64,000 nt of DNA. Origin: Tubiluchus corallicola. Its lineage: Eukaryota; Animalia; Priapulida. Below, piece after piece: positions 9,349 through 49,043 of the stretch (positions are counted from its first letter, which is position 1; every line of letters begins with the position of its first letter). The translations under genes and the position numbers were made by a program. The stretch is taken from contig JAQGDQ010000074.1 of the NCBI GenBank assembly GCA_030141605.1, forward strand, positions 434,001-498,000. Direction: 5' to 3'. Below the pieces are notes generated by a model. The model did no database searches. It saw only the letters and a program-made list of their open reading frames with translations, and was not told the DNA's origin.

Positions 9349-9510
9349 GAGCAATATTTGAAAATACGTATCGAGACGGTACGCTGCAGAAAGTATTTGA
9401 ATATGCAGTTATGAAGGTCAATCAAAATCCAAACATTTTATCAAATCATCGACTAGTAGCTGACATTCGATATGTGCCAGCAGAAAATAGCTTTGAAGCC
9501 TCTAAAACAG
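9349..9510 (+). CDS. iGluR gene 1 ATD exon (GAIFENTYRD...NSFEASKT)
   Basis: tttacag|GA acceptor and G|gtgagg donor. GAIF...F.YAV..VN...DSF/NSF.ASK is the start of the kainate ATD. Confidence 0.9.
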
Positions 9511-12309
9511 GTGAGGTCGAACATTGTTTGACGCAGTAACTAGCTTTACACACGTCACGCTTTATGGTCACGTGTTACCGTAGAGTAGATATTCCTAAAA
9601 AACAATCGAATATAATAAACTTACTTAATTAAAACACTTGCCCTAACTCAAACACTTTCAATTGACTTTCACACCAGCTTTCAATTTTAGCCCATGATAG
9701 ATGAAGTTCAAACGTTTGACAAAGAGGGCGACTATGTGACCGATAATTTAATATTTTTGGGCTGCCTGACGAAAAGGCTGAATCTAGATAACTGGCAAAC
9801 AAAAACGGGAAATTGGGCGAAAGTCGACTAAAATGACCAACCAAAAAGGGAACACATAGTCTTTCTAGTTTGCAAACTGACAGAAAACAAGAGACAGAAT
9901 AGAAGAGGAGAAGAAAAGCGAGGAAAAAAGTGGAGAGAATGGCAGAGGAAGGAAGAAGACGAGAAAGGAAATGGGAGGGTGAAGAGGAGAATTATTTCAT
10001 GGTGATAAGATGAGAATAGAAAATGATTCTCCTGTGCATTTTTGGGTATTGGAATGATGGTAAAGTATTATTTAAAAAGAATAATTAATCTACTATTAAT
10101 TTTCAAAATAAAGTTTGATAGCTACTACGCTAAAATTATTACTGTCGCAAATTCAATGTAAACCTGCATTAAGTATGTTTTTCGTTGTACGTAGTGTACA
10201 ATGCTGTACATAGTCTAGCAATGTTCAAATCTAATTCAAATCTAAATTTACGTAACACGGTATGTGTTATGGCGCATTCAGACTAGCGAGTTTTCTGTCG
10301 CGAACTGCTCTATGAGTTACTGTCGGCAAGAAATTGCAAATTCAGCTACAGTTGCTGCGAGTTGTACTAAAGTGAGCTCTAATCTGGGCATACTATCGAG
10401 TTACTTTACAAGAAAACGTTAGTTTTACATATTTTTATATCCCGAATTCTCCTCAGATATGTTAGGGTTCTAGCAAATGTATATTATACGGGAGGAAAGT
10501 CAGTAAACTTCATGTAAATTGAACAACATTATACCGATTGCAAAAGTAGAAGAGACTACTTTACAAAATTAGACCATAAAAGGTTTGGGAAATCTAATAA
10601 AACACGTTTAGGGAAGAAAACAGAACCCGAAATTTCTAGATACCCAGACATTCCGGGATGAAAAAATACATAGTAACAGCCATTTGTTAATTAAATTGGA
10701 ACAGGCAAAAACTGAAAAGTGGTTGGCCTATATTATTCGCGTTCTCTTTCAATTCAAGAGAGATAGATCGTGGAAATTAAATGGATTTCAATCAACAAAA
10801 TGAAACAAACTAAGCTATAGTGTTTTGAAGTACAGGCTTTATCCATTGAAAACATTGAAGGTTGAATCACAGCAATTACTGATTGCGTTATGAATGTGTA
10901 TGTGTAATAGCTGGACTGATGTTACTTGGATCCTACTGCTCTATAGCCACTTTGTTAAAGTAAACTACTGCGAAAGTATTGTCTAGTTAATCAAGCTATT
11001 AATGAATCAATCACGAAACGCTTGCAGATAAGTGTTGTCATCTCCATTAATAACTAAAACCAATATTGTAATCATAAAAGTGTCTTAGTAAGCGTTTACA
11101 GAAACTCGTAATTTTTAATAACACAGACTCTCTAATGTATGTTGAAGTTACTGTTATTGTTAAAATTGCTGTCTGTTACTGATGATAAAATTGCTGTTTG
11201 TTACTGATGAAGTTGAGGTCTTCTTACTTGTGTGTGTTGTACTTAAATTCGTTTCAAAAAGTTGACCAAATCTGAAACAATATTGAGAAATTAAAAGATT
11301 ATGTTCACGATGAGTTACACGTAACTGAAACTCAATTAATTAAACAATAAAAAATGGGAAGCATTCAATTATCATTAAAAATGTTTTGCAAGTTATAACA
11401 ACCAAACATTATCTTTAACGGTTATTGATTTTTTTAGTGGTTTCGTTTAGCATTTTCGCGGTTTGCGATTGGTAACGGAACGTGTAACGGAATACTCGCA
11501 ATGGCTAAAAATTCTAAAATTTGTAGTTGGGTGGTCGGTATTAACATACCGGGAAGGCAAAGTAAGCTGTTTTGAAATACAAGTATAGCAGTGTAAAGAG
11601 CAGTATAGAGCTCTTTAATTCTAATTTCTAAACTCTCTCAGCGCGCATCCATTTCTCTCTACAACAAAAGCAAAACACTCGAACATCCTTATAAGCAAAG
11701 TATTTCTGCTCGAGTATCATATCCACCAACGATAAATTTAGATGGATGATTAAACTAATTTGCTGTTCGCCTAGTAAATGATTAATGCGGTTTTCAAGAG
11801 ATTCGTGACTCGCTACTGTGAAGTACATGAAATGAAAAGAGTGTGGGCCTGCCTGAGAGAAATTTCTAAATGCAATTTAGCAAGATTTGCTGTCACTGTA
11901 TAGCTGCATTTTCAAGAAGTGTGAGAATGCGTATAAGAAGCAAAGCAAACATAAGTAAAGCCCTAAATGTTTCGAGGAATTTATGGAATAAAGCTTTTTT
12001 GAATCGTGCCTGTAGACTCCGTTGCTTTTCTCGTTACTTCATCATAGATGTTGTATTTACCGTTCACTTCATCTTAGGTATCACACTGTTATGTCATCAT
12101 TTGTGGTTGCCAGTTCCTTGATTAATAATGACACCATCCACTATTATTATCGTTATTAAAGCGTTGTTTCGTCGTTGTTCTTATTGTCTTGCCTTCAGTG
12201 TTAGGGGTAAACCTAAATATCAGTGTTGCTCGTCATATAGCTGGTGTTGTTCCTCTTACCGTTAGCATCTTTATCATTATCGTTTAACATTGTTGTTATT
12301 GTCATTATC

Positions 12310-12950
12310 ACATTCGTCATCACAGCGTCATCACCATCATTATCATCGCCAAGCACAAAGACAAAGGCAACGTTTATTTACTCTCTCTCGTTTTAACAGA
12401 CAACATTAGCACTAACATTTAGCGACTTATACTGATAACAATACAGTTAGGTCGCAACACACAAATAACGAATGACGTTACAGGGTATATGTTATGCACT
12501 CAAGATTGCATGTTGCAGTCCGATATCTAGACCAATCGACCATACAACCCTGGACGATTATTATCATCATCATCACCACCACAATCATCAGCATCACCAG
12601 TAGCGCCACTTTCTTTATTTTCGTCAACATCATCATTCCTGTCTTAATATCATCGTCGTTATTATCGGTACTATCATCAACATCAATCATGTCAGCGTCT
12701 TTACCAAATCATCATCATTCAAGTCGTCACAGTCATAATCATTTCACTGAATACAGCTGTTATTATTATTATCATCATCATCATCATCGTCGTCGTCGTC
12801 GTTATTATCATCATCATTGTTTTTATCACCATTATCATCATCATCATATCATCACCCACATTTCTTCACTGTCACTATCATGACTTGGTTGATGTCATCA
12901 TCATCCACAATATTACTACCATCATCATTGTCAATGTTGTTATGGTCATG
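12310..12950. repeat. Degenerate (ATC/CAT)n trinucleotide low-complexity tract
   Basis: Runs of catcat/tattat/cgtcgt that produce the spurious His/Ile-rich ORFs. Confidence 0.8.
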
Positions 12951-15900
12951 AAAACTTTTCACGCCATAAGTTTCTGAACACATGAAAATGTCTTCAGCAA
13001 AACTTCTTCATTTTCGCTGAAACTAGATCTATCCTAGATAAATAATTCTCTTCCTAGCTATTTTATATTGGAACGTCTTACTTTGGTCTCACGAGTATTC
13101 ACTCCAGACTTGTAGGCTGTACATCTTAAGAAAGCCGTTTTCATTTGCATAATGTAGAAAATTAAATAATGTACGACAATTTTCCTCCCAACGCATTTAA
13201 ATTGAAATATACTGCATCATAAAACGACTAATTAAGATTCTAGTACAACCAAACTAATCAAATCTTACAATACCGCATATACGGCATCATAATGCTTCGC
13301 AATTCCGAGAATGGATGTGTTTTGTCCATTTTATAGGCTATTTAACCACAGCAATGTTTTGAGAGGAGCTGCAAAATGTTTTCGAAAGGAAAATGTGTAT
13401 AAACGTTGTGAAGTGAGTGCTTACAAATTGTCGCATTTTTTGGAAACATCGCACTTTTCATAAATTTTCGAAGTTTTCTTTTATAGTCCTTGGTCGTCAG
13501 CTTATTCTTTAACATTCGCTGTCTTTAAATAAGTTACCAAGTAAGATTATCATAAAGATGTGCATTTATGATTCTATTTCTTCAAAAAGTAACAGGCTTA
13601 ATGGACAATGACCATGCCCTATAAGCTAATTTTAAAAGCAGTTATAAAGTAAATTTGAATTGAACTGTATTACCAAAACCTTCCTTTACAATACTTCATT
13701 AGTTCCTTTTCTTGTCTTTCCCTCAACACAGTGGATTATGATTAGGACATGGATTAAGAACCATTGCATTTAAAAACTTTACATTGTTGAAAGATAGTGG
13801 GCTGAGAGACTGCTGGGTGAGGAGTGAAAACTAGTGCAACCTAAATAGTATTTCTAAAAAGGCAGTAAAAGAGGGACACCATTTAATAAGCTAAGAGTCA
13901 TCTAAGCCAAACGGGTATAGATGGAGATACACATAAAATATATTTGGGCATGCGCGTAAATAAAAATACTCAACCTTTGTTCTACTAGTACAAGATCTAT
14001 TAACTAAATTTAATTGGTCAGGTGTAGAAATTCAATCTAAACCTGACCTTGAGAACGGTTAACTGGCTTCCCACGCAGTCCGTAAATAACATAATCTGAC
14101 TTTCATCAATACAACAGCATCCAGACATTGTTTCAAGTTTTTGTCGACCGATGAAGTGCACTGAAACTCCAAACGAAAAAGATAATCGAATTTATCTCTC
14201 GACTCATCTTCAAATTGCGGATTACGAGTCATTTCCAGCTTAATACTGTTAAAATCAGTAAGCTGCTGCAGCACTGTTACACTGTATCCGAGTTTTGCAG
14301 TTTTCGCCAATTTCTAGGGCAAAACGTTAAGGCGTAATTTCTGGTGCACGGTGAACTCATACAAGCTTTGCCATAGCTACACCACCTGGCGACAACACTT
14401 CCATGCTCCCAGGAACTTCCAGTAATTATAAGAAAAAGGAAGACTCGTACACGTACTATCCATAGGAAACATGATTTAAACCAGACTCGTGCAGACTTGA
14501 ACCATTATTTTAAAAAATATACTGATTAAAACTACTAATTGGTCGTAAAAAACATTTGTATAACTTCCTGTTCCTAGATACGTTCTTCTATCCGGTCTGT
14601 AAAATAACGATATCATTTGCAACAAAAAGCAAAAGAAGTTTTAGGTTACTTATGACGGTCAGACGGGTCAGTTACCGCTCTGCTATTAATTTCGAATCAA
14701 TCTTCGGCAACTGTTTTTCCAGCACATTGCTGCATTTTATTCAAACCATGTTATTTCCAGTTCTCAGTGTGCACCATTGGTCATTGGTAACTGCCTCCCC
14801 AGCGTAATCCAGAGTGCATATCTGCCGAAAGTGATATAAATTGTTGCTTATTACAGTCCGTGGAGAGAATAGATATTAGAGCTTTTGCAATAGTTCATAC
14901 AGATGTCTCGCCAGAGGACGCAGACTATGAGTAGATTTATGGACAGTCATATTATAAGCGAGATAAAACGTATGTATCTAAGTGTGTTCTTATTAACGCC
15001 TCCATTATTTAGGTTTTACGGTGTATCATTAATTTATGTTTTTGTAACCATTTAGTGCGAGCAAGCCAAGTTATACTTCTCACACACCACACAATGTGAA
15101 ACTCCAAACAGCAATTTTAGTCTCAAGTATAGAGACAAATTATGAACAAAACAGTTTTTGTCTGAAAATCTAACTCAATCCTAAATGGCAGCGAAGCTGT
15201 TTTACAGAATGCAAAAACCTTAAGTTAATTAATTAATTAATTAGAGGCCATTTGTCTACGTACGTTAGAGATCATTATAGTCGCCGCTGATCATTATATT
15301 ATTCCTGCGACGAGTAAACATGACAATTATCAATTGTAACTATTGCCAGAAATTCAACTAACATGAGGCGCACTGTTCTATGTTACCGTTGACAGGAATG
15401 CGTAATTGACAGGCTACGTTGCCCACTACACGAAGCAATCACATTAGAAACAATGTGCTTGTCAAAGGCTAGCTCAGTAGGTGACACTAACTTTGTTTAT
15501 TGCATATAAAAAGTCAAGAACCAAAACTGTGGCACAGGTTTTTATAAGGTGTAATGTCGTGATGAGCCTTTGGAAAGTTACGTACTACAGCTAATAAAAG
15601 AAACAAGTACATTACGGTGAACTGAATTTAAAAATACTGATATGGGCTACGATATCGGAGAATCAAGATTTTTTCAGAAAGTTACAAAAGTGATTAACTA
15701 CAATTACTGACATTTTAAATATTGGGATAATCGATTAATAAAACTAATAACATGTGAAAAAAATAAATGTTAGTAGTACACAAATGACACTAAATTTGAA
15801 TTGGACAAACATGTATTCTAATATTGTTTTCAAAATCGCACGACATTTTTCATAAAGTATCGCATTTAGTTTCCAGCTTTGATTAACTTGAACAAACTAA

Positions 15901-17757
15901 CAGGACAGGAAACGTCATAATTTTATACGAAATATATCCTATATTTTTAATTCACGTTGAAGTGTGTGCGTGGCGCATGCGAGTTTATACTAAACTGAAC
16001 TAAACTGCGTATTTATACACAGAAAATAGTTCGGGATGTTTTACAAGGCTAACTCAGCGTGCGGCGCGTGTCACAAAATTCATTCAAAAAGTGTTGAAAA
16101 TTTTCTTGGTTAATGAGCTAGTGCTTTCTAAATATTTAATTTCGGCAATCAGCGCATTCGCAAAAACTCTTTAGTCGTGCAATCAGTGCAGTCATTAAAT
16201 TCGCCTGCAATCAACTGTTTCAGTGAGTCGATAGCCTAGTGGCCACAATGTAGACATGACAAGCCGACGAAATGAGACCCGAACAATTTTCACCAACAAT
16301 TTGTTTGGGTTCGTGATGTCTATAATAATAAGACATGCAACAATTTTCCAAACTGCGAACACGATTTCTATTTTGATTGGTAAAATGCCCTATGTGACAT
16401 AACAATTTCTGCGACACTGTTTGTGTGGTCAACACGTTTATTCGCTTTCGGTCGGTTAATGTTTTGTGAGTTATTCGACACAGATGAAATTAAGCGTAAA
16501 ATTGAGCGATTTTCGGTCAGTCATTGCCCTCTGCGTCATTGTAACATGAAGGTTAGTAGTGCCAAGTCATTCATTATTTGGACTGATTGAGTAACACATA
16601 GACGTTAATTTCAGTTCACGAACTATTGTGTCTTCATGAAATAGTTCATTTTCAAGCTATTCTGCAGACAATGTAAGTCTTAAGTAACAACAGAAAGGTA
16701 AAACTTGCAGTTTTAGTTATCATGAAGAATGAATGGAAGACAACATTTGAAGATGGTCTACTGCAACGTGATATGCAACGCTGTGATCGTATTATTTCTG
16801 ATTGTCGAGCACAGACAGAGCCTGGTAGTCAGTAGTAAAGCATACCAAACACCACTAAGTTCATGATAGTCTGATACGTATGTGGTCATTTGCCTTCTAT
16901 GATTTTTCATGTACTCCAATCTGTGACACTATATGTCAGTAAGGTATTGACAATATTTTTCCGGTTTTGAATGAGAGGTGAAACCAAAAAGACGGGAAGG
17001 GTAATGGAGGACAGCGGAAAAAAACAAAGAGAGAAAAACGAGAAAGGGAGCGAGAGAGACAGAGAGAGTGGGAGGAGGAGAGATAATATAGTAAAAAGAG
17101 AGAAAGAGAATGAGAGAATGTGACACGGGGGGAGGGAGAGTCTACGGATAGATACCCACAGGGTACCTTTGTTTGCCGATAAAACTATTTAAATCCTACG
17201 AAAACAAGGTAAAACTACAATACACATGAGAAATGTATGCTGCGTACAATCACATACACTCATATGCAATAATAATCTTCACTTACGTCCTATTGAACTA
17301 TGACTATCTACTGATCTAGTATTAATTGTTTGTAATTTTTAATAAAGATATAATTTCATTAAAAAGGTTGCTTATTTTACCTGACCGAGAGTGCAAAACT
17401 CCCTATCTATGCAATGCTTTAGTTAACATAACATACTTTTCCTACTTTCGCCATCTGTCGTTGTGTTGCATATTGTGCAAATTATTTGATTAATATATCA
17501 AGCGAACATTGCCTGGCTCATTATCAAGGGTATACCTGTATACCTTTAACATGAGCCCACAGAACCAAGAGCGAGTATCGAATCCATGGCAGCCGCTCGC
17601 ATATCAGCTCAGCTCTGAACATTACAATTTTAAGCCCAATTACAGCTTGCAACTGTGACGAGGCTTCTGTTTCTGTCGGTATATTGGAAATGTCATTCTG
17701 GAGTTTTCTATTACATTACGTAAAACTGAATGTTGTTGTTCATCATGTTTTTTGTAG

Positions 17758-17873
17758 CGTGTAAGCAAGTCAGTTCAGGCAGTGGACTTGCTGCCATGTT
17801 TGGACCACAAGACAGCTTGCTGGCGTCTCATATGCAATCTATCTGTGATGCTCTAGAAATCCCTCACGTCGAG
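17758..17873 (+). CDS. iGluR gene 1 ATD exon (ACKQVSSG..AAMFGPQ...ICDALEIPHVE)
   Basis: ttttgtag acceptor, gtaaaa donor. Carries the conserved FGP and SICDALEIPH motifs, in frame with the previous exon. Confidence 0.93.
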
Positions 17874-19234
17874 GTAAAACAACTAATACAATTTTCTCAG
17901 TTTCTACAAATACAGTACTTCTGACATCATCATTTGATTTTAGCAAGAAAATATTGAGAAACTGAAAAAAATGAAACGGAATGAATTATTTAGAAAGTTA
18001 CAAGTATACATAAAAATGATCTTCAAATCATTTTTGTTTTATCATTTATCTCAGCTGTGGGCTTAAAACAGCCCACAAAGTCGTAAAAGCTCTATTATAT
18101 GGTTACCAAGGCTGTATGCAGAAAAAAGAGAAAAAAGACTAACTAGATCAAATCCGCCAAAGATACAGGACTTGTCGCGCCAGCAGTTAATTCATCTGTG
18201 TTTGAAGGAACTAAAATCATTCCTGCGTTATGGTCCTAATTTAATTTTGTTACTTATCTAGCTACTCAAATTTCCTGCATAGCTAGTAAGCATATGTGTC
18301 GTCGGAATCTACCCTGTAAGGTATTTTTATTGATTTATGTCTCTTTCAAGAAACTTATCTAATCTTGTAGCTTTAAATTCTTAAGGCTTATATACAGTGT
18401 GGGGATCTTAATCTGATAATGTTTAGGGGATGTTAATCTGATAATTTTAGAACGCAGAAAACTACAGTAAAATTTACCAGTTTGTTCATTAACTGATCTA
18501 ATGTTGTTTAAGACAAATAAAACTTTATTGACATAACTTTTATAATTGGTCTGAGACGACAATGTATTTCAGACTATCTTACTGCTTGGGCGTCAATTTT
18601 GTAACATGTCAGAAATTGTTTTTCTAAACGGCTTCGCAATACTTAAGGATGAAACCAAGCAATCAATTGTAGGCTTATAAGACCTAATAAACATTACTGT
18701 TGCTTACTTGCTCTTAGACTAACAACAACTTTTTCTAACGATGAACTAAAAAACTATGAGTATATCACCAGTAATGAGAAAGTAAAGTGACATCAAAGGA
18801 AGGAATTATTTGTGTTTAGGCAGTGTTCAGGCAGTGGAGTTATGGCAGAATAATTAGGAAATATAAGTTTTCCGTGATGTATATTTTCATCATCAAAACT
18901 GAGTTGTCTACTCTAGCGAAGGGGTGCCATCGCCGCCCGAGCAGGGCAGACACGTGGTACTAACGGCGGCCTATTTTACTACAACCCTATTTTATTCCTT
19001 CTATTTCGCGGTACACAATCTAGTTACTAAAATGAGTGACTAGATTGCAACCGATTGTACACTTTATACTAATTCGTTGTGATCAGCAAAATTGAATGGG
19101 AACACATGCATTATTTTTTATTTTGGAAACCATTATAAAATTCAAAAGAAATGTCATAAAAGTGTGTATATTCTTCATGCAGGGTTAAAAATGTGGCCTA
19201 CTATTTTCGCGCATACTTTCCAGGCGTTTGCAAA

Positions 19235-19800
19235 CCCTGTACCCACAACCAAGCACAATCTACCTTGATACCCAAGACTTCAGCAACAGCTATTTCAATG
19301 CCAAAGGCCTCAGCAGCAGGTTCCTCAATACCCAAAATCTCAACCTCAACACTAGCTACCTCAATGCCAAAAACCTCAATATCCACCATCTCAGCACCAC
19401 TTACTTCAGTACCAACAACCTCAGCAGCAGTTGTCACATTACGGGCATTTTCAGCACCAGCTGCTGAGTACTCAAACTTCAACACCAGCTTCATCAGAAC
19501 CTACAACCTCGGTTCCAGATCAGTGCCCACAACATCAGCACCAGATAACTCAGTATCCACAACCTCAGCACCAGCTGACTCAGTGTCCACAACGTCAGCA
19601 CCAACTACATCTCAAGACTGCAACCTCAGTACCAATTACCTCTGTATCCACAACCTCAGCGCCAAATTTATCAGCACTCACAACCTCGGTACCAGCGTCT
19701 GAGAAGGCAAAATCTCGTCACCAGCTATATTTCAGTGCCTACAACATCAGCATCAGCTGCGTCAGTACCTGCAACCTCAGCACCTACAACCTCTGCTTCC
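19235..19800. repeat. Degenerate 15-bp-unit minisatellite (caacctcagcaccag-like)
   Basis: Recurring cacaacctcagcacca/cacaacatcagcacca units at 15/30-nt spacing. Confidence 0.8.
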
Positions 19801-20027
19801 CGGTATCCCAGTATCAACAATTTAAACACTTTCTTACTTGCACCTGAACTTGCTCGTTCGTTCATATGATGCCTTATAGATATACGTTTTATTGCTATAA
19901 GTATATTTTGATTGTAAAGAGTCAGTTTCGTTGATGGCTGTGAAAAACATTGCTATCATGTATCATAATTCTCAAACCAATATAATGATGAATGCCTGTA
20001 CAACTCTACATTAATAAATTATTACAG

Positions 20028-20178
20028 GTTAGGTGGCAGTACACTAGTGAATTACAAGAAGGAGAAAGATTATCTGTGAATTTATTTCCTGAATACACTG
20101 CGTACAGCCGCGCTTTCCTTGATCTTGTCCAGAAACAAAACTGGACGTCTATTGTGATAATTTATGAAGACAACACAA
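20028..20178 (+). CDS. iGluR gene 1 ATD exon (VRWQ...SVNLFPE...W...IIYED)
   Basis: attacag acceptor, gtaagt donor. Motifs NL(F/Y)P and W....IIYE. Confidence 0.9.
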
Positions 20179-20523
20179 GTAAGTGTTAATTTAAGCAACC
20201 TCGATTCGGTAGACCAGTAAGCAACTCTTTTCGTAATTTCTCTAAAAAAACAAATACCTTCTTTGAGATATTACATTATATTGAGGAAATTCCTTTCTTT
20301 CACTTTATACAATGATACTGCTCGTTTTCACACTTTTTAATGTTAATGTTAATATTGAATAGTGTTGAAACAGAAAAGTACTTGAGAAGAATGACCAAAA
20401 GACCAAAATTTTGTGATTCCTATCTACGTGTAATAATGAAAGCACCAATTATAAGTAAAAATGGTTTCGTCGTTTCGAATTTGTCGTTAGACTTTTACGA
20501 AAAATATTATTTTCTTTTTTCAG

Positions 20524-20699
20524 GCTTAATAAAGCTGCAAAATGTTATAAAAGAGCCGTTATCCACGCAATTGGAGCTCTATGTCAGGCAAATGAATGGC
20601 ACAAACCACCGACAAATAATGCGATATATAAAGAAAATCCGCAGATTCCATATTATTGTAGACTGCAGTCCCGAGCACACCATGTTAATAATGAAAGCG
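20524..20699 (+). CDS. iGluR gene 1 ATD exon (SLIKLQNVIK...HIIVDCS...MKA)
   Basis: ttttttcag acceptor, gtaaaa donor. Motifs LIKLQ and IIVDC. Confidence 0.9.
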
Positions 20700-22135
20700 G
20701 TAAAATAATTGAAACATTGGAAAGTGATTCATATATAATTTAGTAAAGTTTTAAGTAATTTAGTAAAGTTAGTACAGTTGCATTTAATAAAAAGTGAGCC
20801 AGGGATAACATCATAATGTCGTGAGTGTAGATGATGGATTAAAAGTAGCATATTAATTAAAGAACTCACTCCAGAAATATTCATTCTCCAAAAAGAATTA
20901 TTCCAAAAACACTCAGTGAGCGCTGTAAAACATTATCAGCCACTGATAAAACTGTAGAATGCTTTACAAAAAGATAAGCATTCAGTACAACAGACACCTT
21001 TTTGGCACTGGAATTTTAACTTCGGAACTGCTGCTTCCCTCTGTACATCAGGGGCTGGTTTCCAAATATGCTCTGTTAGTCAGACTAAATGTCACTTTTT
21101 CAGTCGATTGACAGCCTTCACGTGATGTATGTTACCGTGATGTTATGTTTGAGATTACGCCTATTTGTTACCCACATCATTTTAAGAAGCTCAAGTCCCT
21201 AGAGCTTCTATTTAATTCCCTAATGGGACGGGCTCTAATTGTGCACTAAACTCACCCCCAGTGCTCTTCCATAGTACAGGCTTCAGTGCCTTTTAGTTTG
21301 CTTCACTTTTAATAATTTACAGCATACTGTAATATAGCAATTATTGTGCTTGGTCTCAATGACCTTGGTTCATAATTTTGAATAAACCCTTTATCAGTAC
21401 CTATACGATCTCACACTTTCTTAAATAAAAGCATTATGCAAATAACGATTTGCATATCTTTTTATAGTTTTATTATATGTGTTAAATATAGAAATTTTTG
21501 TAGGGAAGCAATTGAACATTAAACTTTGGGAGTTTTAAACGATTTGGAACTTGCTCGCCTGCATCTGTGTAACTCTAGTAACATCTCAGTTATCTTATTA
21601 ATTCTCAAACACAATAATTCTTCGCAGGCAACCCACCCTACATAATACCCAGTTAATACACAGCTTAATATAGGGGACATGTATTAATTAAACGCAATTA
21701 CAACGTAACATATTTAATGATTAATATAGTGACGTGACATTTTTACTTCGAATCCGCTTTCTATACTTTCCTTTTTTATCCTTTACATTTCCCCATTTTT
21801 CTCTTTATTTTGAAGACGCCAACTGCATAATAACGCAAAATATTCATTGTTTTCAGTTTTGTATAAAACAGCAAATTTACAACAAATTTGGTCGCTTGGT
21901 AATTTTTCAAAGTTGGCTTCTAGGACTCTAACATATTCAAAGTGAAGGTTACGGGATTACTTGTCAGATTTGATTGCCTTTATAGCCAAGTATAAGAGCC
22001 AAGTATAAGAGAGTTTTTCTCAACTTTAACATATATTCTAGTCGGAACTAAAACTTGAACTAAAAGGTAATACATAAAATTAAACCGGCAATTGAAACTA
22101 AATGGTTGATAAAAATGCAATTATTTTTACTTTAG

Positions 22136-24141: not shown

Positions 24142-24199
24142 GTAGCTTTCATCTAAAATGTCCTCCATATCTTTTTCAATCTTTTGTTACTTAGCTGAC

Positions 24200-30143: not shown

Positions 30144-30366
30144 GACTCAAAGATCGACACCTACAGAAAAATGTGGCGTTTTATGGACAGCAAGCCTGAG
30201 GTATTCGTAAAAAGTAATGCAGAAGGGGTGCAGAAAGTGCTAAATGAGAACTATGCTTTTCTTATGGAGTCAACAACCATCCAATACGCTGTCCAACAAA
30301 ACTGCAACTTAACACAAGTTGGGGGCCTTCTAGATAATAAAGGATATGGAATCGGAACAAAAATTG
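30144..30366 (+). CDS. Module A exon 3, S2 ([11 protein letters not shown]...YAFLMEST...[12 protein letters not shown])
   Basis: ttctattag acceptor, gtttgt donor. Canonical S2 motifs. Confidence 0.95.
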
Positions 30367-30544
30367 GTTTGTTTCTATTTGGAAGTTAATAATTTAAAAA
30401 AAATTTGTGGTCACTATGATAGAATCAACCTATTGATTCCAAATAATTTTGTATTTTTTTACAACTGACATAGATTGTTGCTAAAATTATGCGTGTTTTA
30501 TTTACCTGATATACCTGTAGTGTTATGTAAATGGTGTTTTTCAG

Positions 30545-30656
30545 GCTCAAAATGGACTGAAAAAATATCATTAGCGTTGCTGGACTTACAGGAGAAAGGG
30601 CGCATACATATGTTATACACAAAATGGTGGAAACACCATGGAATGACTTGTAACAG
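30545..30656 (+). CDS. Module A exon 4, S2 end (GSKWTEKISLALLDLQEKG...KWW..C)
   Basis: tttttcag acceptor, gtaagt donor. LQE.G and KWW motifs. Confidence 0.94.
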
Positions 30657-31064
30657 GTAAGTTCTCTGTGTTCTAGAAATGTAAAAATACAGAGGATCTG
30701 GGTTCAGTTCTCAGTGGAAGCACATTTTTTCAAACTTTCAGGCTTCTTAATTAATTTTCGCTTGTGTGTAATACAACAGTAGCGACAGTTCATAACGTTA
30801 TATAAGATACTTGGTATTACTTGGTATACTCTGCAGCTTGGTGTTCATAACTGTGCAGTGAGACAGTAAAACAAATCAGTAGCAGAACCTGCACAACAGC
30901 TTGCCATACAACTATGGTAACAACTACTATTGTTATTGCCCGATGTTGCTCCCCCCCCTCTCCAGTTGTCCATGTGATCGACTCCCACACACACACGCGC
31001 AATTCGAACTCTTCCTATTTGGTTCGCTGTCAGGAGTGTAGTACGGGTAGTTCTTTTGCAGCAC

Positions 31065-31280
<216 letters not shown>

Positions 31281-31659
31281 CCCATTACCTGCAGGCGCTT
31301 TTACACTGGTATTCATGCATGTCTACATGTATTCATGTATGTCTGCATGCAGTGGCTTCATAGTTGATTGAACTATTACAATGTAAAAGTGATAGTGAAA
31401 AAGATGTGGTTTTTCGCAGTCGTTATAATACTAAAGCATCATTGCAAAGTACAAAAAACTGTTATAACAATTAAATATACAACCGTTCCGGCCTACCAGT
31501 GCTATAATATATTATAGCATAGGTGCTTTAATAATATAATTAAAAGGTCAATATAAGTGATTTAAGCCTGCTGGCTTTTACAAAAAATGAATAAATAAAC
31601 AGCTGCCTGTAGTCCCAAGTCAGCGGTTTTACTGCATGAGCACTAGATGGATTGTATGT

Positions 31660-31770
31660 CGTTTCGCCTGGGCACAATTCGCCAGTGCATCTTTCGCCAG
31701 TCTATTTTTTCGCCACTCTATCTTTTCGCCAGTCTATCTTTTCGCCGGTCTGTATTTTCACCAGCCTATC
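31660..31770. repeat. Short tandem repeat (tttcgccagtctat-like unit)
   Basis: About 6-7 degenerate copies of ttcgcca/ttcgccg at 15-17 nt spacing. Confidence 0.7.
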
Positions 31771-32877
31771 GTTTCACAGGGTACCGTGACTAACACTGAA
31801 GACTTAACTGACCTAGAAGTCACGACTGACCATTAGATATCGACATTGTTTCATTTAAACGCTTTATGAACAGAATATAAAATCCTACGGGGCGTGCCAT
31901 ATATCATTGGATTCGCAATGAAATGTAGAATCTGATACAATGCATCAATATTGCGAGTCGAGTTTCGTTCAGCCAGAAAAAAGGCAAAAAACTTCGAAAC
32001 TAATCAAAAAGTCTTAAAGTCGAGCCTTCAAAATTAGCAAAGACTATAGCGACATGCTAAAAAGGCAAAGTCCTTTAGACAAAAACTAAACACAACTTCT
32101 AAAAGAATATTTCTTTTGCTACCAGGACCTTCCGTTTTTTGAAAGTCGTTAGCCACGCCGTCCAGAAAGCGCCAAATAACACGTTAACGTGACGTTTTCG
32201 ATCTCATAACTTAAGCGTAATGACAAGTGGTGGCCCTGATTCTGGAGGCCCTTGACCCCTGCTATTCCATACCAAATTTTGTTAAATTTTTTAATTTAAT
32301 TTTTGAGTTATTAAAAAAATTGTACCTCGGAAATTAAGTATCGAAGCACGAAAATACCAGATTCTGAGTGCTTGCATTTTCAGTATGTTTAATCCTGCGA
32401 TGTTAATGGCTAGCCACCTAAACTAGGAATTAACATTTTAGGCTAGGAATTAATACGTTTCATTAACATTTTCCCTGGTTTTTAGATTAATCCCTAGTTT
32501 TTGTTAATCCATAGTCTTCTTAAGCATTGCAGCTAGTTCTAATGTCCGTACAGCGTTTGGTCATCTGTTAGGAGCGTGGATTTCAGGGTCTCGCCAGCGT
32601 TAGGGATATTATTTCCTAATTTTAAGAGCGTGAAAATGGGTCTGGGGAATTGTTTGCGGAAGAGGTGCTGAACGTGGGGGGAAGCCATGGTTTAGGGTAC
32701 TGATAGAGAATTGATTGGGCTATCACTAGACTGAACGAAGATAGTGGAAATTGATTCCTTTGGTAGTAATGACTCCTCAAAGCTATCCCTTTTTCCTATG
32801 CCTTAAAATGGGGGACAAGGTTTTGGCTTCCCTATACCTTATGTATGAGAGGAAATGGCCTTTACATAACAGAACTG

Positions 32878-33150
32878 GTACCAAGTTACATTAATTGATC
32901 ACATTTTCCGCTTGAAGTTTTGTAATTGCAAAGTAAGTTTGCTATTACAAAATAGGCGCTAAACTTCGGGTTATTACATTTTTCATCTTGTGAGTCATAC
33001 ATCGTGCATTGGTTGTTTTTATATACATTTTCCATAAATTTTAATACATTATCGGTTAGTTATTACATTATGTGTTGATTTTTATCACATTATGCGTTAA
33101 TTTTTTCTGTAGTAAAATATAAAGCATTTACTTACATTATCAGTTATAAT
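32878..33150. repeat. Dispersed repeat copy 2
   Basis: Same ordered motifs as 8900-9172, in the same orientation. Confidence 0.7.
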
Positions 33151-33311
33151 AACAATACTATGTAATTTCATCCGCATGTTTTAGTGGGTTTTCAGCGGAA
33201 ACTTAATACTCGAGTCATGTTTGGATATTCGAAACAACCACGTTCCTATGACCATAAAATAGCTGTTACGTGGCATTTAGTGTGGTGTTTTAGAATAACT
33301 TACCTTCACAG

Positions 33312-33465
33312 GGATACGGAGAAAAAGGAAAGCAAAGCTAATGAGCTTGGCGTTGAGCAAGTTGGTGGCATATTTGTGGTTCTTCTTGGAGGCCTGGCGG
33401 TTGCTATGGTGATGGCCATTGTTGAGTTCGTCTGGAGTACAAAAAAAAGTGCGCAAATTGAAGAG
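33312..33465 (+). CDS. Module A exon 5, M4 (ANELGVEQVGGIFVVLLGGL...VEF)
   Basis: ccttcacag acceptor, gtttgt donor. GGIF.VL.GG M4 motif. Confidence 0.94.
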
Positions 33466-34055
33466 GTTTGTTTAGATTAATTATAAAAACCCCAAACAGG
33501 ATTTAATTAATGTAAACAACAAGCTGGCTCTATCTCAAATATTAAGCTGTTCTAAAATTGTTTTAAATTTGATTTAAATTTGATTTTCTTTGTTTATTAA
33601 TTTAAACTTTGTTACATTTAATTTGCAAAAGTTATTTATTTGATCGCCATTTCAATTTCAAGTGCATGCTGATTTTGTTATTTTAATTTTGTTTGACAGG
33701 TCACCTGAATTTTCTTCAATTTCGGATGACTGACCTGGTGACCATCGGTTTTGCGCCACCCTGTCTCTTTTTTTCTGTTTATTATTTTATTTTTGTTTAT
33801 GTTCATTTGTAAATCCTAAGAGACAAATAAACATATACTTACTGGTTTACAGGACAGATATGAATTAAATAATAATGTATGTGTAGGGCTATAAAATCAC
33901 TGGAAGATGTTTTTCTTCTTATTCTATGTCTTCTAGCTAGAGATCGTTTTTACATAAAGCACACATGCAAAAAAATTATATCATTGTTCTCTTAAAAGCA
34001 CTGTGAACTTATATTTCTTTATATAGGTATTGTCACTACATTTATCTTTTTGTAG

Positions 34056-34325
34056 CAATCTCTCTGCACTGAAATGGCAGACGAATTTAAATTTGCCATC
34101 CGTTGTTGTGGAAGCCAACAGAGACCTGTTCTCAAACGCAAGTGTTCACGGTGCTCGCCAAGAAACACGTACGTTCCACGTCAATCCAGTGGAGATCATG
34201 GAATTTACATGGAGCCGATCGGATTGAATTTGTCAAGAATTCCAAACATTGCACCACACCATCAGAAGTTGTCACCGAGTCATCATAGCATGTACAATAA
34301 TTATGAATCCAATGTTGATGATTAG
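34056..34325 (+). CDS. Module A terminal exon, cytoplasmic tail ending ...YESNVDD*
   Basis: ctttttgtag acceptor. Homologous to the module B tail; TAG stop; AATAAA at 34586 and 34607 downstream. Confidence 0.9.
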   Translation, partial: QSLCTEMADEFKFAIRCCGSQQRPVLKRKCSRCSPRNTYVPRQSSGDHGIYMEPIGLNLSRIPNIAPHHQKLSPSHHSMYNNYESNVDD

Positions 34326-34585
34326 GGACTAGATGCTTAGTGTATTCGTAATTTTTTATTGTGACCTTTGCTGGCAGTTACGGAAGATTGTAGAAAAGGA
34401 TTTCATTTCAAATATGAAAAGGATATATACAGGTGTCATTTGCAAGTTAACTTCAGTGATTGTATATTACGGCAGTGCTTGTATAAGATACTGCTCTGCC
34501 TGGATATTAAATGTATTGTCCTCCACAAGTTTTGAATAATGCATATTGATATTATTATGACAAATATGGCTAACATGCATAATAC

Positions 34586-34612
34586 AATAAAAAAATTCTT
34601 AAGATTAATAAA
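34586..34612 (+). terminator. Candidate polyadenylation signals for module A
   Basis: Two AATAAA hexamers about 260-285 nt after the module A stop, followed by T-rich sequence. The AT-rich background lowers specificity. Confidence 0.4.
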
Positions 34613-35053
34613 TAATTTAGTTAACATCATTTGTGAAAGGATATTACAGCTTTAGTTTTTTGATTTTTAAGTTATTCGTATGAAAGAAAGAATTTATACA
34701 AATGTCAATTGGTCTTTTTGTAATTATTATAACTAGTGTCTTGTTTTTTTTTAATAACTAGAGCTAAATTGTTATGTTATTTTGTAATAATGGTGACCAA
34801 TTGTAACGGTCGACTGTTTTTAATTATTTTTTATCTTGTGAACAAGTACGAGGTATTCCCCTACAGGAAAACTGACATTGTAGATTACATTATATATTAA
34901 TGTTTAATCTTTAATGTTTGGTGCTCTAGTTACACTGTGCACACGATGAAGAAGTGAAATTATTTCAGAAGTTTTATCAAGATCGTCTAACATAATTTAC
35001 TTGCATTATTTACGCTAGGAAAATTATAACCCCAGTCGCCGAATCACTACTAT

Positions 35054-35155
35054 CTTCATCATTGTCGTAATCATCATCAACATCATCAGCAGCAGCATCA
35101 CCATCATCATTGTCGCCGTCATTATCGTCATCAGCTTCATCATCGCCATCATTAA
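35054..35155. repeat. Degenerate (CAT)n tract
   Basis: Direct reading. Confidence 0.75.
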
Positions 35156-37690
35156 CATTGCAAAGGTTTTCCACATTTTTTTCATGTAGCTGGCGTCCAA
35201 ACAGTGTATAGGCCCATGATTGCCAATTGTTGCAATATAACCGTCTTTCATTATTGTAAGGTTCCTCCTTTATAGACTGAAGGACAATCTACCTATGATA
35301 AGGTTGTGCAGGTACAATTGTGAATATTACATAGTATTGTTATTGTTGTTATTTACTACTATTTATGTACTAACTATTAATGCTTTAATACAATATGTAG
35401 GCTTGCTCAACTTGTATAAGTACATGTATATTTAAAAACGCTTTTAGTTAGAAAACCAAATTCTGGCAACAAGCGTCGTCACTCCTCGGTCAGTCAGTTG
35501 CACTTTTGCATTGGCATTAACGTTTCTATTTGTTATACGTGTCAATTTAGCATTAAATTTTATGTATAAATCAAACAAGCTTTATTTGATGAAGAGAATT
35601 TCGAGGTAAAAACTCATTATTATGCACATTGTGGTTGCGAAACGAAAAAGTTATATTGCAAAATAAGCAAAAGACAAGTTACTTGTGAATAAGTTTTTGG
35701 GGTACCAATGAACATGCAGACAAAACATATTTTTATGCAATAATACCCAAGCAGTATCACTAAATGGTAATAACATCAAGTAATATTAAGTTTTATTGTG
35801 TTATTTATTTATTTCAATATGCATCTCGAAACATCAGCTTAGTTTCTACAAGTTTTTGTTTCTACATTTCTTAAGGATGAAGCTTAAGTTCCTCGGCTGT
35901 TACTTTAACAGAAATTTGTTTTCGGTGCATTAAAATTAATTGCCTGCCTAATCTAAATGCTAAAAATGCAATTTAGTACCAAACTTGACCGCCTTAATAT
36001 ATAAAACTAAAATGTGTCTGCTACCGGCAGACTTTTTTCTTCCAAAAATATTGCTGAACGTTTTTAAGATTAAACATGTTATAGCACAAGAACAGTTCTA
36101 TCTTGTGAAATGAGCTATATTTATAATATAGCTTGTTCGATTTCTGGAAGACATGTGCTTTTTTCTTTTATAAACATATAAGTCAGCTCACATTAACTCA
36201 CAAGACAACAGAATCTGCAAGTGAATGATAACAGCCTCTTGTTATATGACGAACAGATTCCTTGTGCATTTTGTTCACTTTCTTTGTTCAAGAGAGTTTT
36301 TAAGCCAAATGGCACACTTTCACGTTTCTTATTTGCACTTTCAAGCCTTGTTTTACATGCTTTTTTTGGGACATCATGATTCGTTACTGACCGTTTTGTC
36401 CATGCATTTTCATTGTTCGAACCAGGAACAACAGGCAGAACGACACGTAATCACTACTGGGGATAACTTCACTCCCTTAGCTTGGAACTTTTATAGTATC
36501 TAAGTAAGGTGAAAAGAAGTACAACATCACTCAATGTATTCTATTTTGCAAATAACTCAAGCTTCGACCAAAACGTGATACATCATACATGGACTGAAAT
36601 ACTAAACTCCTTTGTTTCGCAGACTGCATTACCACTTTATGCCTATCATGTTCATTGGTTCTAACAACTTTCATAATTAAGTTAATTACAGCTTGGTTTT
36701 TTTAACATTTTCTGACAATCCCTCCTCTTTCTCAGCCTTATTTTTTGTTGTCAAAAAAGTACAGTTGTCGTCTTGACTAAATGTCTCCATAGTTCTGCAC
36801 CAAGAACTCTGATCCATTTTCAGGCTGATGATTGTGCTGACAGGCAAGATCGTCATGTCCAGGTGTGAGTCTCTCAACTTGCTTAGCAGCATGAAAGTTC
36901 GATGAAGCTAACTGAGGAGAATGTTGTTGCTTTTTCTCTTATATTTTTTACTAATTGCATGTTTGTTTTCAGGTTGCCCAGGTTCGTGCTGACCAGAATG
37001 CGCGAAGCACGTTGTTACCTATTTAAAATCTAATGAATATAAACCTTTTTATACACTTAAAATTAAAACTGGCACATGTCAATGTTCATGCTTCCTGGAA
37101 TCATGAGTCATTAAGTATCTGCTTTAGAGAGACACCACTAGTAAGGCTTTGCCTTTAAAGTTTATCTTGAAAGTTTACTATTGAAGCACCTGGCGGAGTG
37201 TTTCGTCAGAAGGGTGCAGAAAGCTGCTAATTACTTGGTGCTTTCTCTCTATCTCTCTCTCTCTCTATCAATGCTTAACGACTCAAAAGTTTTACCAGCA
37301 AGAATATGAGAGTGCATGCCTTTTTTTCCTTTCGCAGACACAGCATGCTTGCCAGTGGCACGTTAGCATTGCCATTTTAATACAATTTTGTACTTACACA
37401 TTTACTGCACTTTAGTTACGCTAAAATAATTATTAGTCGACTTTTTAAACGTAGTTTCGTGCTAAACTTTGCCAAAACGTAATGAGCTAACACGTAGTTT
37501 AGCAAACTGAACCTTTTATTTTGCTAAACTTTGCCTATACATATAAAAGCGGTTATGTTATAATCTCATGTGTCAAAGAATTTACAGTTAATACGATATT
37601 AAAGCTTTTAATGTAAATTTAAAATTCCCCTTTGGTGTAATTCGTTATTTTTGTGATTTTTCAAATACACGATTCTCGCTTAATTTTAAG

Positions 37691-37903
37691 GAAGAGCCAT
37701 ACGTTATGACGAAAACGAAATCTGACAGCGAACCTGAACCTAGAGGAAATGATAGATACGAAGGGTTTTGTATAGACATGCTAAACGAAATTGCGTCCAA
37801 GTTGGGTTTCCAGTACATACTAGAGCTGGTCCCAGATGGCGTGTATGGACTTGATCTTCCAAACGGAACCTGGACTGGGATGGTACGAGAACTTGTAGAA
37901 GGG
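37691..37903 (+). CDS. Module B exon 1, S1 (EEPYVM...GNDRYEGFCIDML...WTGMVRELVEG)
   Basis: aattttaag acceptor (phase 0), gtaaac donor. Homologous to 27860-28063. Confidence 0.92.
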
Positions 37904-38585
37904 GTAAACACATTTTTAAAGACATTTTGTATAAAATGTTCTTGCATGCTTTTGCAATAGTATGTAAGGGTTTACTTTATAGTTTTCGGAACAACCTGTT
38001 GATTGCATGCCTCTAACTGTTGTTATGTGAGCAGCATTGCTGATCATTCTAAAACGGGTCGCCACACATTACCTACTGATTGAAACCTATGAAATGATCT
38101 AAAATATCTGTAACTAGAAAAGAATAATACATTTTCTATCGTTATAAGTGCAATACAAAACTATTGAAGTTTTTGACTTGTTTGGACTAAACACTATTTA
38201 TCTGCTACGCAAAGATTGGTGTTATTTGGAGTACACGAATAGGAACACTAATACGTTTCACACGTACATAAGTCAATTGGAGATCATTGCATGACATAAT
38301 TTAACATGAGAGAACAGCTCTTACTCAGGTTTTTACTATCGTAGATTTTCAACTGCAAAGTATGAAATCGAAAGGAGCGAACAGTTAGTTTTGATATTAT
38401 GAGAAGTTCTGTTATTTATTGTGGCACAAATGTATGGCTGCTGAGCTGAGTGGGTTTGCAGGCATTACAACTGTACTGACGAGACCTTACTGTGTTTACG
38501 GACTTGCGCCAGTGATTTTCAAAGCCTAGTTTGTATCGCAAAGCCGCAGAAGTGAATGATTGAATAATTTCTGTTTATTTTTCAG

Positions 38586-39146
38586 AGGGCAGACTTGGCC
38601 GTTGCTCCGTTGACGATCAACTACAAACGCGAGAAGGTCATCGATTTCACAAAGCCATTCATGACTCTCGGCATCAGCATTTTATTCCGCGTTCCAGAAG
38701 GAAGTCGCCCGGGCTTATTCTCGTTTATGAATCCTCTCTCTGTATATATCTGGATATATGTTCTAGCTGCGTATGTCATAGTGAGCTTATTTTTGTTTGT
38801 TCTCGCGAGATTCTCACCATACGAATGGTACAATATGCACCCTTGTGACTCTCAGGATGGCATGGTGGAGAACCAGTTTACGCTTATTAACAGCTTTTGG
38901 TTCACCATCGGCACGCTGATGCAACAAGGTTCAGATATCAATCCGCGTGCTGTTTCCACAAGAATAGTGGGCGGTATTTGGTGGTTCTTTACCCTGATCA
39001 TCATCAGTTCTTATACAGCGAACTTAGCTGCATTCTTAACAGTAGAACGTATGGTGTCACCTATCGAAAATGCAGAGGACTTATCTTCGCAGACTGAGAT
39101 ATCATACGGAACCTTGTCAGGCGGATCTACGATGACATTTTTCAAG
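38586..39146 (+). CDS. Module B exon 2, S1-M1-M2-M3-S2 start
   Basis: tttttcag acceptor. 561 nt, ending at TFFK exactly like module A, but followed by a non-canonical gcacgt (GC) donor. Confidence 0.92.
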
Positions 39147-39395
39147 GCACGTACAAATGACTTATGTTATGAATTTAAATGATAAAAAATAAACATAAAT
39201 TTGATAAATGCTAAAAACAGAAGGTGCTATACGACCTACCAATTGCCAGAATATAGGTATCTCATTTTTAAATTTCTACTAGTATGATACTGTTTGTTCT
39301 GAGAGCAAGTACTTAGGTTTGTTTATGCCGCAATTGGAAATTTTAACATATTTTTCTTTTTGCATCTGCTTTATCCCTTCCTCTTTCCCTTCGCG

Positions 39396-39400
<5 letters not shown>

Positions 39401-39463
<63 letters not shown>

Positions 39464-39500
39464 ATGTGTGCGTGCGTGCGTGCGCGTGCGCGTGCGTGTG
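39401..39500. repeat. Compound microsatellite (CT)n(GT)n(GCGT)n
   Basis: Direct reading. Confidence 0.95.
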
Positions 39501-39870
39501 TCCGTTTTTATGAGCTTATTTCTAGTACCTGTACAGTTTACGAGCTTTCTTCTCCTGAGGTGAATAATTCATAACTAACAAACAAGACAGATGCACTTTG
39601 GGATTATGATTTGCTGCTGTTTTACTGCTCTGTGGGAAAAATATTAAGCCGTTGTAGCTGGAATATAAAACAAGTATTTTAGCTTAGTTTAGGTTTTTAC
39701 GTTTTACCTAATGCCTTACAAAGACGTAACTTAAATTATACAAATAATACAAAAAAAGGAATACAAGCAGTGATCAACAAAGTAACAAGATATTGCTTTC
39801 AACCGGTTACTCAACTGGTAATAAAAGCAGCATGTACTCGTAAATAAGACGGTTTTTTTTTAAATTATAG

Positions 39871-40096
39871 GACTCCAAGATAGAACTTTATCAGAAGATG
39901 TGGCGATACATGCAGTCAGCAAAGCCGTCTGTTTTTGTAAATAGTTACAAGGAAGGCGTTACTTGGGTGTTAAATAAAAATTACGCATTTCTCATGGAAT
40001 CCACCACTGTACAATATGAGATACAGAAAGACTGCAATCTTACGCAAATTGGCGGGCTGCTTGATACTAAGGGATATGGCATTGGAACACCAAGAG
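39871..40096 (+). CDS. Module B exon 3, S2 ([11 protein letters not shown]...YAFLMEST...GYGIGTPR)
   Basis: ttatag acceptor, gtattt donor. S2 motifs. Confidence 0.95.
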
Positions 40097-40671
40097 GTAT
40101 TTTTCTCATTTATGACTTGTTTGATGTCTTAACGAGAAACGAGCTATCCTTAAACTGCACCGATTATTGAAGGTCTGCTGCGCATGTAAGCCGCTATGAA
40201 GTCTATTATTATTTTACATTGAAGCGTGCAAGAAATCGCTACACATATTCCATTTCTTTTATTTTTTAAGCATATCATTCATTCAGGTAAACAGCATTTT
40301 AAAGACTATCATAGTGTTTGTAGTTTTTATCGGTATCGAAGAACAAGCAGTCGGTCACTAGCTTGCAGGATGGTGATTCAGGCATTAACGACTTTGACTC
40401 AAAGGGTTAACCTAAGTAGAATAAAATAGCCAAGCTCCAAACTCACATTGTTTTTTAGTGTACAAATTTAATATACTCTATTCTCAAAATCAACGCAAAA
40501 CGCATTTCTTCTAAATTAATTTCATTAGTTATTTATGAATTTCGCTGCCGTGAATGTGACAATTTTATATTGGCCACACTTACTTGAGAAATAGAGAGCA
40601 GTGATGTAGGAAAAGAAAAAAGCAGCTAATAAACTTGCGGTGCTCCATAACTTTATAGATCTTTCTTCCAG

Positions 40672-40783
40672 ATTCTGTTTGGAGGGATAGAATATCCCTT
40701 GCGCTGCTGGAACTTCAGGAAAAGGGCAGAATACAGATTCTGTATACCAAGTGGTGGAAACACATGGGTGCTTCGTGTAACAG
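40672..40783 (+). CDS. Module B exon 4 (DSVWRDRISLALLELQEKGRIQILYTKWWKHMGASCNR)
   Basis: ctttcttccag acceptor, gtgatt donor. 112 nt as in module A. Absent from the ORF track. Confidence 0.94.
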
Positions 40784-41085
40784 GTGATTTTATACTTCTA
40801 CTGCCCAATGACTCATAGAGAAATTCCATTGATTATCTACTGCTTTTAGCAAAAAATATAAAAAAGGCATTTAATAAGACGAGTTCTAGTTAATATTTTA
40901 AATAAATGTTTACTATTTACATGTTACTTATTTTAAGATTATGTAATCGTACTCACTTGCTGTAGTGTGTGGAAACACTCAACATGTGTTACTCTAAAGT
41001 TGCTCATAAACTCTGAAGGAACAGTTTCTCGTAGGACATATGAAATCTAATGAACCATTTTGTGTAACAGTGTTCTTTGTTTCAG

Positions 41086-41239
41086 GGATAATAACAAAAA
41101 AGAAAACAAAGCTAATGAGCTGGGAGTGGAACAGGTGGGAGGCATTTTTGTTGTCCTTCTCGGGGGCCTTGCATTAGCGTTTGTGGTGGCCATAGTTGAA
41201 TTCACTCTGAATTCAAAAAGGAACGCTCAAACTGATAAG
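41086..41239 (+). CDS. Module B exon 5, M4
   Basis: ctttgtttcag acceptor, gtgggt donor. 154 nt as in module A; ANELGVEQVGGIFVVLLGGL is identical to module A. Confidence 0.94.
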
Positions 41240-41534
41240 GTGGGTTTATTCAAAATTATTGCTAAGTTACACATCTGCATTCACCTTCATAATGAGACCT
41301 GTTTCAAACGTCATTTGTTTTGCTTCAAATTCATGTGCGTATTCAAAATTCGGAATTTCCTGCTACTGATATGTACCGTCACTAGTAGAAAATGCAAAAA
41401 TTAAAGAATTTAATTGTATTATAATATCATTCCTTATTATTAGTAATGTTTTAGCCATAATTGTGTAAAAGCGATTGAGTAGTTCTATACTTATTAAAAT
41501 AGTGAGCATCATTTTCGGTTCTAATTTGTTGCAG

Positions 41535-41771
41535 CAATCTGTGTGCTCTGAAATGGCGGAAGAATTTCGATATGCCATTCGTTGTCATGGCAGCCAACAG
41601 AGGCCAGCTCTGAAGCGGAAGTGTTCGCAGTGCGAACAGCAACAGGCAAACACTTACGTACCGGCAGGCGACGCTGTGTACATCCCAGAATCTAACGGAG
41701 GCGTAATGCAAATGATGGAGGTGCGCAGATCGCCCGTACATTATAACTACGAATCAGCTTCTGAGATTTAG
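41535..41771 (+). CDS. Module B terminal exon, cytoplasmic tail ending ...YESASEI*
   Basis: tttgttgcag acceptor. QSVCSEMAEEFRYAIRCHGSQQRPALKRKCSQC; TAG stop. Confidence 0.9.
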   Translation, partial: QSVCSEMAEEFRYAIRCHGSQQRPALKRKCSQCEQQQANTYVPAGDAVYIPESNGGVMQMMEVRRSPVHYNYESASEI

Positions 41772-43254: not shown

Positions 43255-43451
<197 letters not shown>

Positions 43452-49035: not shown

Positions 49036-49043
49036 AATTTTAC

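Follow-up and report, generated by a model that had tools for sequence, protein, structure and literature searches.

One amino-terminal domain and two receptor halves

In the priapulid Tubiluchus corallicola we describe a kainate-type ionotropic glutamate receptor (iGluR) gene on the plus strand of a 64,000-nt stretch of DNA (the window; all coordinates are window positions, and the gene model was rebuilt from the window letters), in which a single amino-terminal domain (ATD) is followed by two cassettes, A and B, each encoding a ligand-binding domain (LBD), pore and tail. With a probability of roughly 0.65, we consider this to be one gene whose ATD is spliced to A through a short exon, 9b, and likely also to B when A is skipped, so that two subunits would result. 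The locus is real and unusual, and a single contig from a probable RNA run shows the ATD joined to A via 9b. The ATD-to-B junction is proposed from the anatomy of the locus, from selection and from orthologue models.

The ATD is encoded by nine exons spanning 9349-25725 (+), which give an open frame of 390 codons with AG/GT ends. The first eight (9349-9510, 17758-17873, 20028-20178, 20524-20699, 22136-22189, 22737-22886, 23726-23878 and 24037-24141, all + and with canonical splice sites) are followed by exon 9 (25621-25725, +), which encodes the end of the ATD and the first LBD strand and finishes at a phase-0 donor, the proposed shared donor. Downstream, cassette A (27860-34325, +) has exons at 27860-28063, 28859-29419, 30144-30366, 30545-30656, 33312-33465 and 34056-34325 and encodes 507 aa running from S1 through M1, M2, M3, S2 and M4 to the tail, with Pfam matches to Lig_chan-Glu_bd and Lig_chan. 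Cassette B (37691-41771, +) encodes 500 aa in exons at 37691-37903, 38586-39146, 39871-40096, 40672-40783, 41086-41239 and 41535-41771; the donor of its second, 561-nt exon is GC (39146-39148), whereas the A counterpart has GT. The initial annotation had drawn the same outline, nine ATD exons up to the donor at 25725 and two six-exon blocks with homologous starts and their own stops, and the rebuilt model bears it out: intron phases are identical in A and B (0,0,0,1,2,0), and the stops lie at 34325 and 41771. The domain order ATD, S1, M1-M3, S2, M4, tail is that of a kainate-type iGluR subunit, and the ATD and B joined in silico stay open for 890 codons. No phase-1 leader (signal-peptide) exon was found in 1-9348, and it may lie outside the window.

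Splicing of the ATD to cassette A

The splicing evidence comes from run X2, which is RNA by the tool's guess and carries the same species label as DNA run X1; its GT..AG joints fit spliced RNA. It yielded three contigs over 20000-31040, and contigs drop rare forms. One of them passes from 25674-25725 to 26277-26348 and on to A exons 1 and 2, with every joint GT..AG (25725>26277 and 26348>27860 flank the new piece). The 72-nt segment at 26277-26348 (+) is in frame, adds 24 aa and is what we call exon 9b. An ATD joint (20178^20524) is also present in an X2 contig, and parts of A exons 1-4 are covered. Because 13 of the 14 listed differences between X2 and the window exons are synonymous, X2 stems from a diverged population or close relative using the same 9b exon. 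A direct splice from 25725 to 27860 had been predicted for A; the ATD and A are indeed joined, only through an exon that had been missed, and no direct 25725^27860 joint is listed among the X2 contig joints. A length of about 900 aa had been predicted; with 9b included, the ATD-9b-A subunit has 921 codons without a leader.

The residues encoded by 9b are rich in lysine and arginine and finish by repeating the first LBD strand. When a profile of that strand was run over 6021 donor-like sites of the plus strand, exon 9 ranked first (18.3) and 9b second, and 9b was also first of 3991 open sites when compared with the last 7 residues of exon 9. A repeated first strand of this kind occurs in none of the 394 homologues retrieved. 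Just 3' of 9b, at 26380-26540 (+), we observed three ACTAAC branch-point-like motifs, a cluster of TGCATG and an AG/GT junction near 26483, which are possibly regulatory for the choice of 9b and A. Between intron 9 and B, TGCATG, an Rbfox-type motif, also seemed to be in excess, with 12 occurrences in 16 kb against 11 in 46 kb, a candidate signal that we rejected because its reverse complement is equally frequent there (12).

Run X1, with contigs of ~300 nt and a depth of ~5, reaches all but one of the 30 bins into which 20-31 kb was divided, and its ATD depth is not above that of A, though contig depth is no copy number. X1 contig depth rises about tenfold over 20963-22290 in an ATD intron, likely a multicopy element.

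Evidence that cassette B probably shares the ATD

The first cassette exon enters about ten positions into the LBD: residue 2 of A1 matches position 11 of PF10613, and residue 3 corresponds to chain residue 14-17 of solved kainate LBDs. B begins at the position homologous to the start of A, after the first LBD strand, and so needs an upstream exon to supply a signal peptide and that strand. Exon 9 joined straight to B1 produces the canonical kainate-receptor junction, as in GRIK1 and GRIK2. In the gap between the cassettes (34326-37690), tblastn with the ATD returned nothing at E<=10, while the same search does detect the diverged ATD exons of a neighbouring minus-strand gene (best E 2.8e-5). 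The first-strand profile likewise peaked at 4.5 in the gap, below non-exon noise (up to 7.6) and below true linker exons (18.3, 8.9 and 8.0), the last of these being the neighbouring gene's linker exon, which came first on its strand.

As a mechanism, splicing into A with cleavage at a pair of AATAAA hexamers (34586-34612, +; hexamers at 34586 and 34607, 260-280 nt past the A stop and predicted as the likely proximal poly(A) site) would end the transcript in the manner of Drosophila 3' tandem cassettes, whose model of coupled splicing and polyadenylation calls for such signals (PMC6191721). With read-through, the donor of exon 9 could pair with 37691, and A would be removed within a 12-kb intron; candidate distal poly(A) signals for B are predicted within 42607-43516 (+; ATTAAA at 42607 and 43235, AATAAA at 43511). 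In the A form, 9b would likely supply the first LBD strand and make the ATD-LBD linker 24 residues longer; the strand of the B form would come from exon 9. Both subunits would then carry the same ATD with different binding, gating and tail parts.

Age and divergence of the two cassettes

A and B are identical at 346 of 515 aligned protein positions. In the 561-nt exons, 391 of 561 nucleotides are identical and 34 of 187 residues differ, and 91 of the 153 codons for shared residues differ synonymously. Across 492 aligned codons, pS reaches 0.78 (saturated) against a pN of 0.21, which points to an old duplication with both copies long kept as protein; compared with A, B is under purifying selection. 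Self-blastn of the window gave four A-vs-B matches, all centred on exons and none in introns. The initial annotation had likewise counted 34 differing residues amid many synonymous changes, seen no intron similarity and called the pair an old duplication with both copies intact, and on these sequence comparisons we agree.

B is the less changed copy, with a branch of 0.21 vs 0.41 for A; A-specific changes outnumber B-specific ones against four of five outgroups, significantly against two. Both cassettes keep the glutamate-contact motifs, the M3 gate motif and the Q at the pore editing site, where the roles of the contact and gate motifs are those we assume from GluA2 and GluK2. In the M3-S2 linker motif A has a leucine where 309 of 414 homologue motifs have arginine, and at another site A has asparagine, as does GRIK2, where B has tyrosine (tyrosine in 131 of 183). 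From GluA and GluK work we take these sites to affect gating and agonist selectivity, and the A/B differences likely fall at positions that tune pharmacology and gating.

Relatives and origin of the duplication

The ATD exons are 36-42% identical to arthropod orthologue ATDs. A tree of A- and B-type halves, as the initial annotation had proposed, was built with 29 rows and made A and B sisters (99/98), outside a 19-row, mainly chelicerate and pancrustacean clade (100/100); their position as sister to that clade had 93/85 and was not starred, in trees without named myriapod, sea-spider or onychophoran rows. Quick trees of the ATD and of S2-tail also paired A and B (96); in them the gene branches basally in, or outside, the clade with Drosophila busckii CG11155. 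Among the named proteins retrieved, none represents the animal's own lineage. With the pair outside the arthropod clade, the whole-half duplication looks lineage-specific and independent of the events that doubled single exons in insects, crustaceans and spiders. The best S1-only tree joins A1 and B1 (89, unstarred), and a grouping of A1 with the "first" S1 exons was not rejected (p-AU 0.225), so that A1 may derive from the other ancestral S1 exon; of the 12 concatenated models, only 4 had both their S1 copies captured there.

Whether such an arrangement was already annotated in orthologues had been left as a question; what the orthologue models carry is alternative single exons. These models use the same donor position for either of two S1 exons, as in Tribolium (P0058/P0059) and Argiope (P0146 and P0147 vs P0150 and P0143). 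What insect, crustacean and spider models duplicate, however, is the single S1 exon, with M1-region exons as well in pancrustaceans, followed by one shared S2 and tail, and not a whole half. Several models (P0015, P0026, P0061, P0074, P0089, P0148 and others) carry both alternative S1 or M1-region exons concatenated in one protein, and these are probably annotation errors hiding mutually exclusive exons.

Points against a shared ATD and alternative explanations

Several observations weigh against B sharing the ATD. Both the joining of the ATD to B and the transcription of B are inferred, and the one X2 contig that includes 52 nt of exon 9 passes its donor unbroken into 9b, with no strong second branch in that sample; this argues weakly against an abundant second branch there. 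When sequencing runs were searched for B exons 1-2, no RNA run was listed and X2 matched next to none of the sequence words, an outcome that we count neither for nor against B. Docking/selector RNA pairing was not above background (best -24.4 kcal/mol vs controls to -24.8 in 10 control region pairs). The orthologue isoforms are automated database models, and one ATD with two S2 regions was found in 0 of 394 retrieved homologues, a layout that annotation would tend to hide; since the homologue ranking was dominated by duplicated-exon models and another search had only 13 candidates, relatives with the same layout may be missed.

A further point lies in the gap. The initial annotation saw no recognisable ATD, linker or signal-peptide exon there, which holds for the ATD but overlooked a phase-0 frame that stops at 34461 and in its final 16 codons is similar to the end of exon 9 (BLOSUM 31 over 16 residues, z 5.1). 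This frame is first of 2379 open sites, its score is matched by 3 of 181,011 resampled sites and 0.2% of gap-sized resamples, and control peptides reached its z in 0 of 170 cases in the gap and 7 of 170 window-wide. Three comparison lengths were tried and it came top at two, for a P of ~0.002 uncorrected and nearer 0.01 corrected. It is open back to an ATG 8 nt past the A stop, giving 43 codons (34333-34461, +) within the A 3' untranslated region, and is in phase with B. It could be a relic of exon 9, a leader for B or chance. Its position is the one expected for a remnant of exon 9 after a tandem duplication, and a relic of the duplicated exon is probable. It is nevertheless the best candidate for a leader or linker specific to B.

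This frame keeps alive the strongest alternative, which we regard as improbable: that B is a separate gene lacking an ATD, its promoter lying in the gap or within or close to the last exon of A, with a leader exon, at best 34333-34461, splicing in phase to 37691. iGluR-family proteins without an ATD do exist, among them kainate-binding proteins and insect ionotropic receptors (IRs). The candidate is ATG-led, ends like exon 9 in phase 0 and has a hydrophobic start, with a best 8-residue hydropathy of 2.9 vs 3.0-3.5 in five orthologue leaders. Its donor, though, scores 0.0, no better than 43% of GT sites, and its ATG lies upstream of the A poly(A) signals, which would place the promoter within A. 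Measured against 15 orthologue exon ends, it scores lower than exon 9 every time and no higher than 9b for 11 of them. A leader-exon scan of the gap, whose donor cut-off left this frame out, gave three other matches, which is no more than background (6 across ~20 kb of non-coding sequence elsewhere); the strand motif closes none of them, and two sit on a pyrimidine tract near 36970, out of phase with B.

Quite unlikely, in our estimate, is that B shares the ATD by way of its own exon-9 copy or a small linker, with exon 8 or 9 spliced to 34378-34461, or to 36824-36862 or 36973-36981, and then to B1. A itself enters through such an exon (9b), and after a tandem duplication one would expect a copy of exon 9 immediately past the A stop, at the site of the 34461 frame. 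The small candidates upstream of B (39 and 9 nt, both + and in frame) have good splice scores, and none comparable was found in ~12.8 kb of three other intron stretches, although no more than 20-22 local sites went into training the splice matrices. The 34378-34461 segment has a poor acceptor (-0.9) beside its ordinary donor, and the direct joint of exon 9 to B1 already yields the canonical junction. The 9-nt candidate has a branch-point-like motif and TGC just upstream, features that neural microexons carry.

About as unlikely is the loss from the assembly, between 34.3 and 37.7 kb, of the ATD of a second complete tandem gene. Complete tandem kainate-receptor pairs do occur, and 5 of 394 retrieved models are double-length fusions. 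The window, however, contains no N; a second ATD diverged to the degree of A and B, with synonymous sites saturated, would not collapse onto the first; and the assembly would need to have lost, cleanly, 1.2 kb or more of coding sequence together with its introns (16 kb in the first copy). That B is a recently silenced half, with only ATD-9b-A made, is very unlikely: A alone was seen spliced, but B keeps 500 open codons, five intact introns and conserved binding and pore motifs, and has changed more slowly than A.

Other features of the window

A degenerate tandem repeat with a unit of ~57 nt occupies 19383-19795 in an ATD intron, and a dispersed 200-nt repeat occurs in two copies 75% identical, at 8977-9170 and, in an A intron, at 32951-33149. 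Tail to tail with the gene described here lies a second kainate-type iGluR gene on the minus strand (45750-62000). Its LBD-pore-tail half is an open 494 aa in seven exons (53653 to ~45750), more than A or B have, its ATD exons lie at ~54.0-62 kb, and it is no close relative of either cassette.

Significance

In two published accounts, iGluR diversity is usually credited to whole-gene duplication, with splicing altering short segments (PMC13520880, PMC8257547). If the ATD is indeed shared, one ATD with two halves at ~70% identity would be a natural domain-swap experiment, separating the roles of the ATD (assembly, synaptic placement) from the pharmacology, gating and anchoring set by the remainder. 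With the ATD in common, the two subunits could probably also join the same partners in assembly. We hold evenly balanced the fuller proposal of one gene making two subunits with an identical ATD and separately evolved pocket, gate and tail, one with a basic 24-residue linker that supplies the first LBD strand anew, which would allow heteromeric channels from one locus and be a whole-half version of the S1-exon switch that arose at the same donor in spiders and insects. The same exon boundary has been used repeatedly in arthropod-type kainate receptors to vary the part after the ATD, and as gene predictors likely split or truncate such loci, further cases may be hidden.

Comparison with known systems

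The nearest relatives of the gene are the arthropod CG11155-type kainate receptors, with 58-66% identity over the half for most full-length orthologues, ~40% over the ATD and the same tail motif. As is proposed for the T. corallicola gene, their models use the ATD-final donor for alternative S1 exons; unlike it, they duplicate single exons and share S2, M4 and tail. P0100 was named CG11155 by its source, and we take CG11155 to be ukar, with Ekar as its sister gene. Fly ukar acts with KaiRID and Ekar in one pathway, according to a preprint (bioRxiv 10.64898/2026.03.20.713276).

Within iGluRs, AMPA flip/flop is a swap of 38 residues differing at 8-10 (PMC8257547). Here too diversity would come from duplicated, mutually exclusive exons, but over ~500 residues with ~30% of aligned positions differing. 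The GluN1 exon-5 insert, a 21-residue cassette at the ATD-LBD interface, alters gating (PMC8257547), and the 24-residue 9b at the ATD-LBD boundary may be a functional parallel to it.

The cassette architecture itself is of a known kind. Drosophila CG42235, Pip and PGRP-LC have common 5' exons followed by tandem multi-exon 3' cassettes with their own ends, and coupled splicing and polyadenylation select among these; in CG42235 the cassettes number five to seven, each made up of six to eight exons, and some such clusters lack RNA pairing (PMC6191721, PMC9013439). In open-access full-text literature, judged by titles and abstract openings, we found no precedent for an iGluR with alternative whole halves. 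Competing RNA pairing, a feature of some members of this kind, was not found above background in the gene (10 control region pairs). The gene differs from the Drosophila clusters in having two cassettes, each of which encodes an entire ion-channel half with ligand-binding domain, pore and tail. Judged by sequence, it shares three of four core features with this kind: homologous multi-exon cassettes in tandem after common exons, a stop and a predicted poly(A) signal for each cassette, and a common exon spliced to the proximal cassette (one X2 contig, via 9b), while the fourth, a junction to the distal cassette, would be the proposed splice from exon 9 to B.

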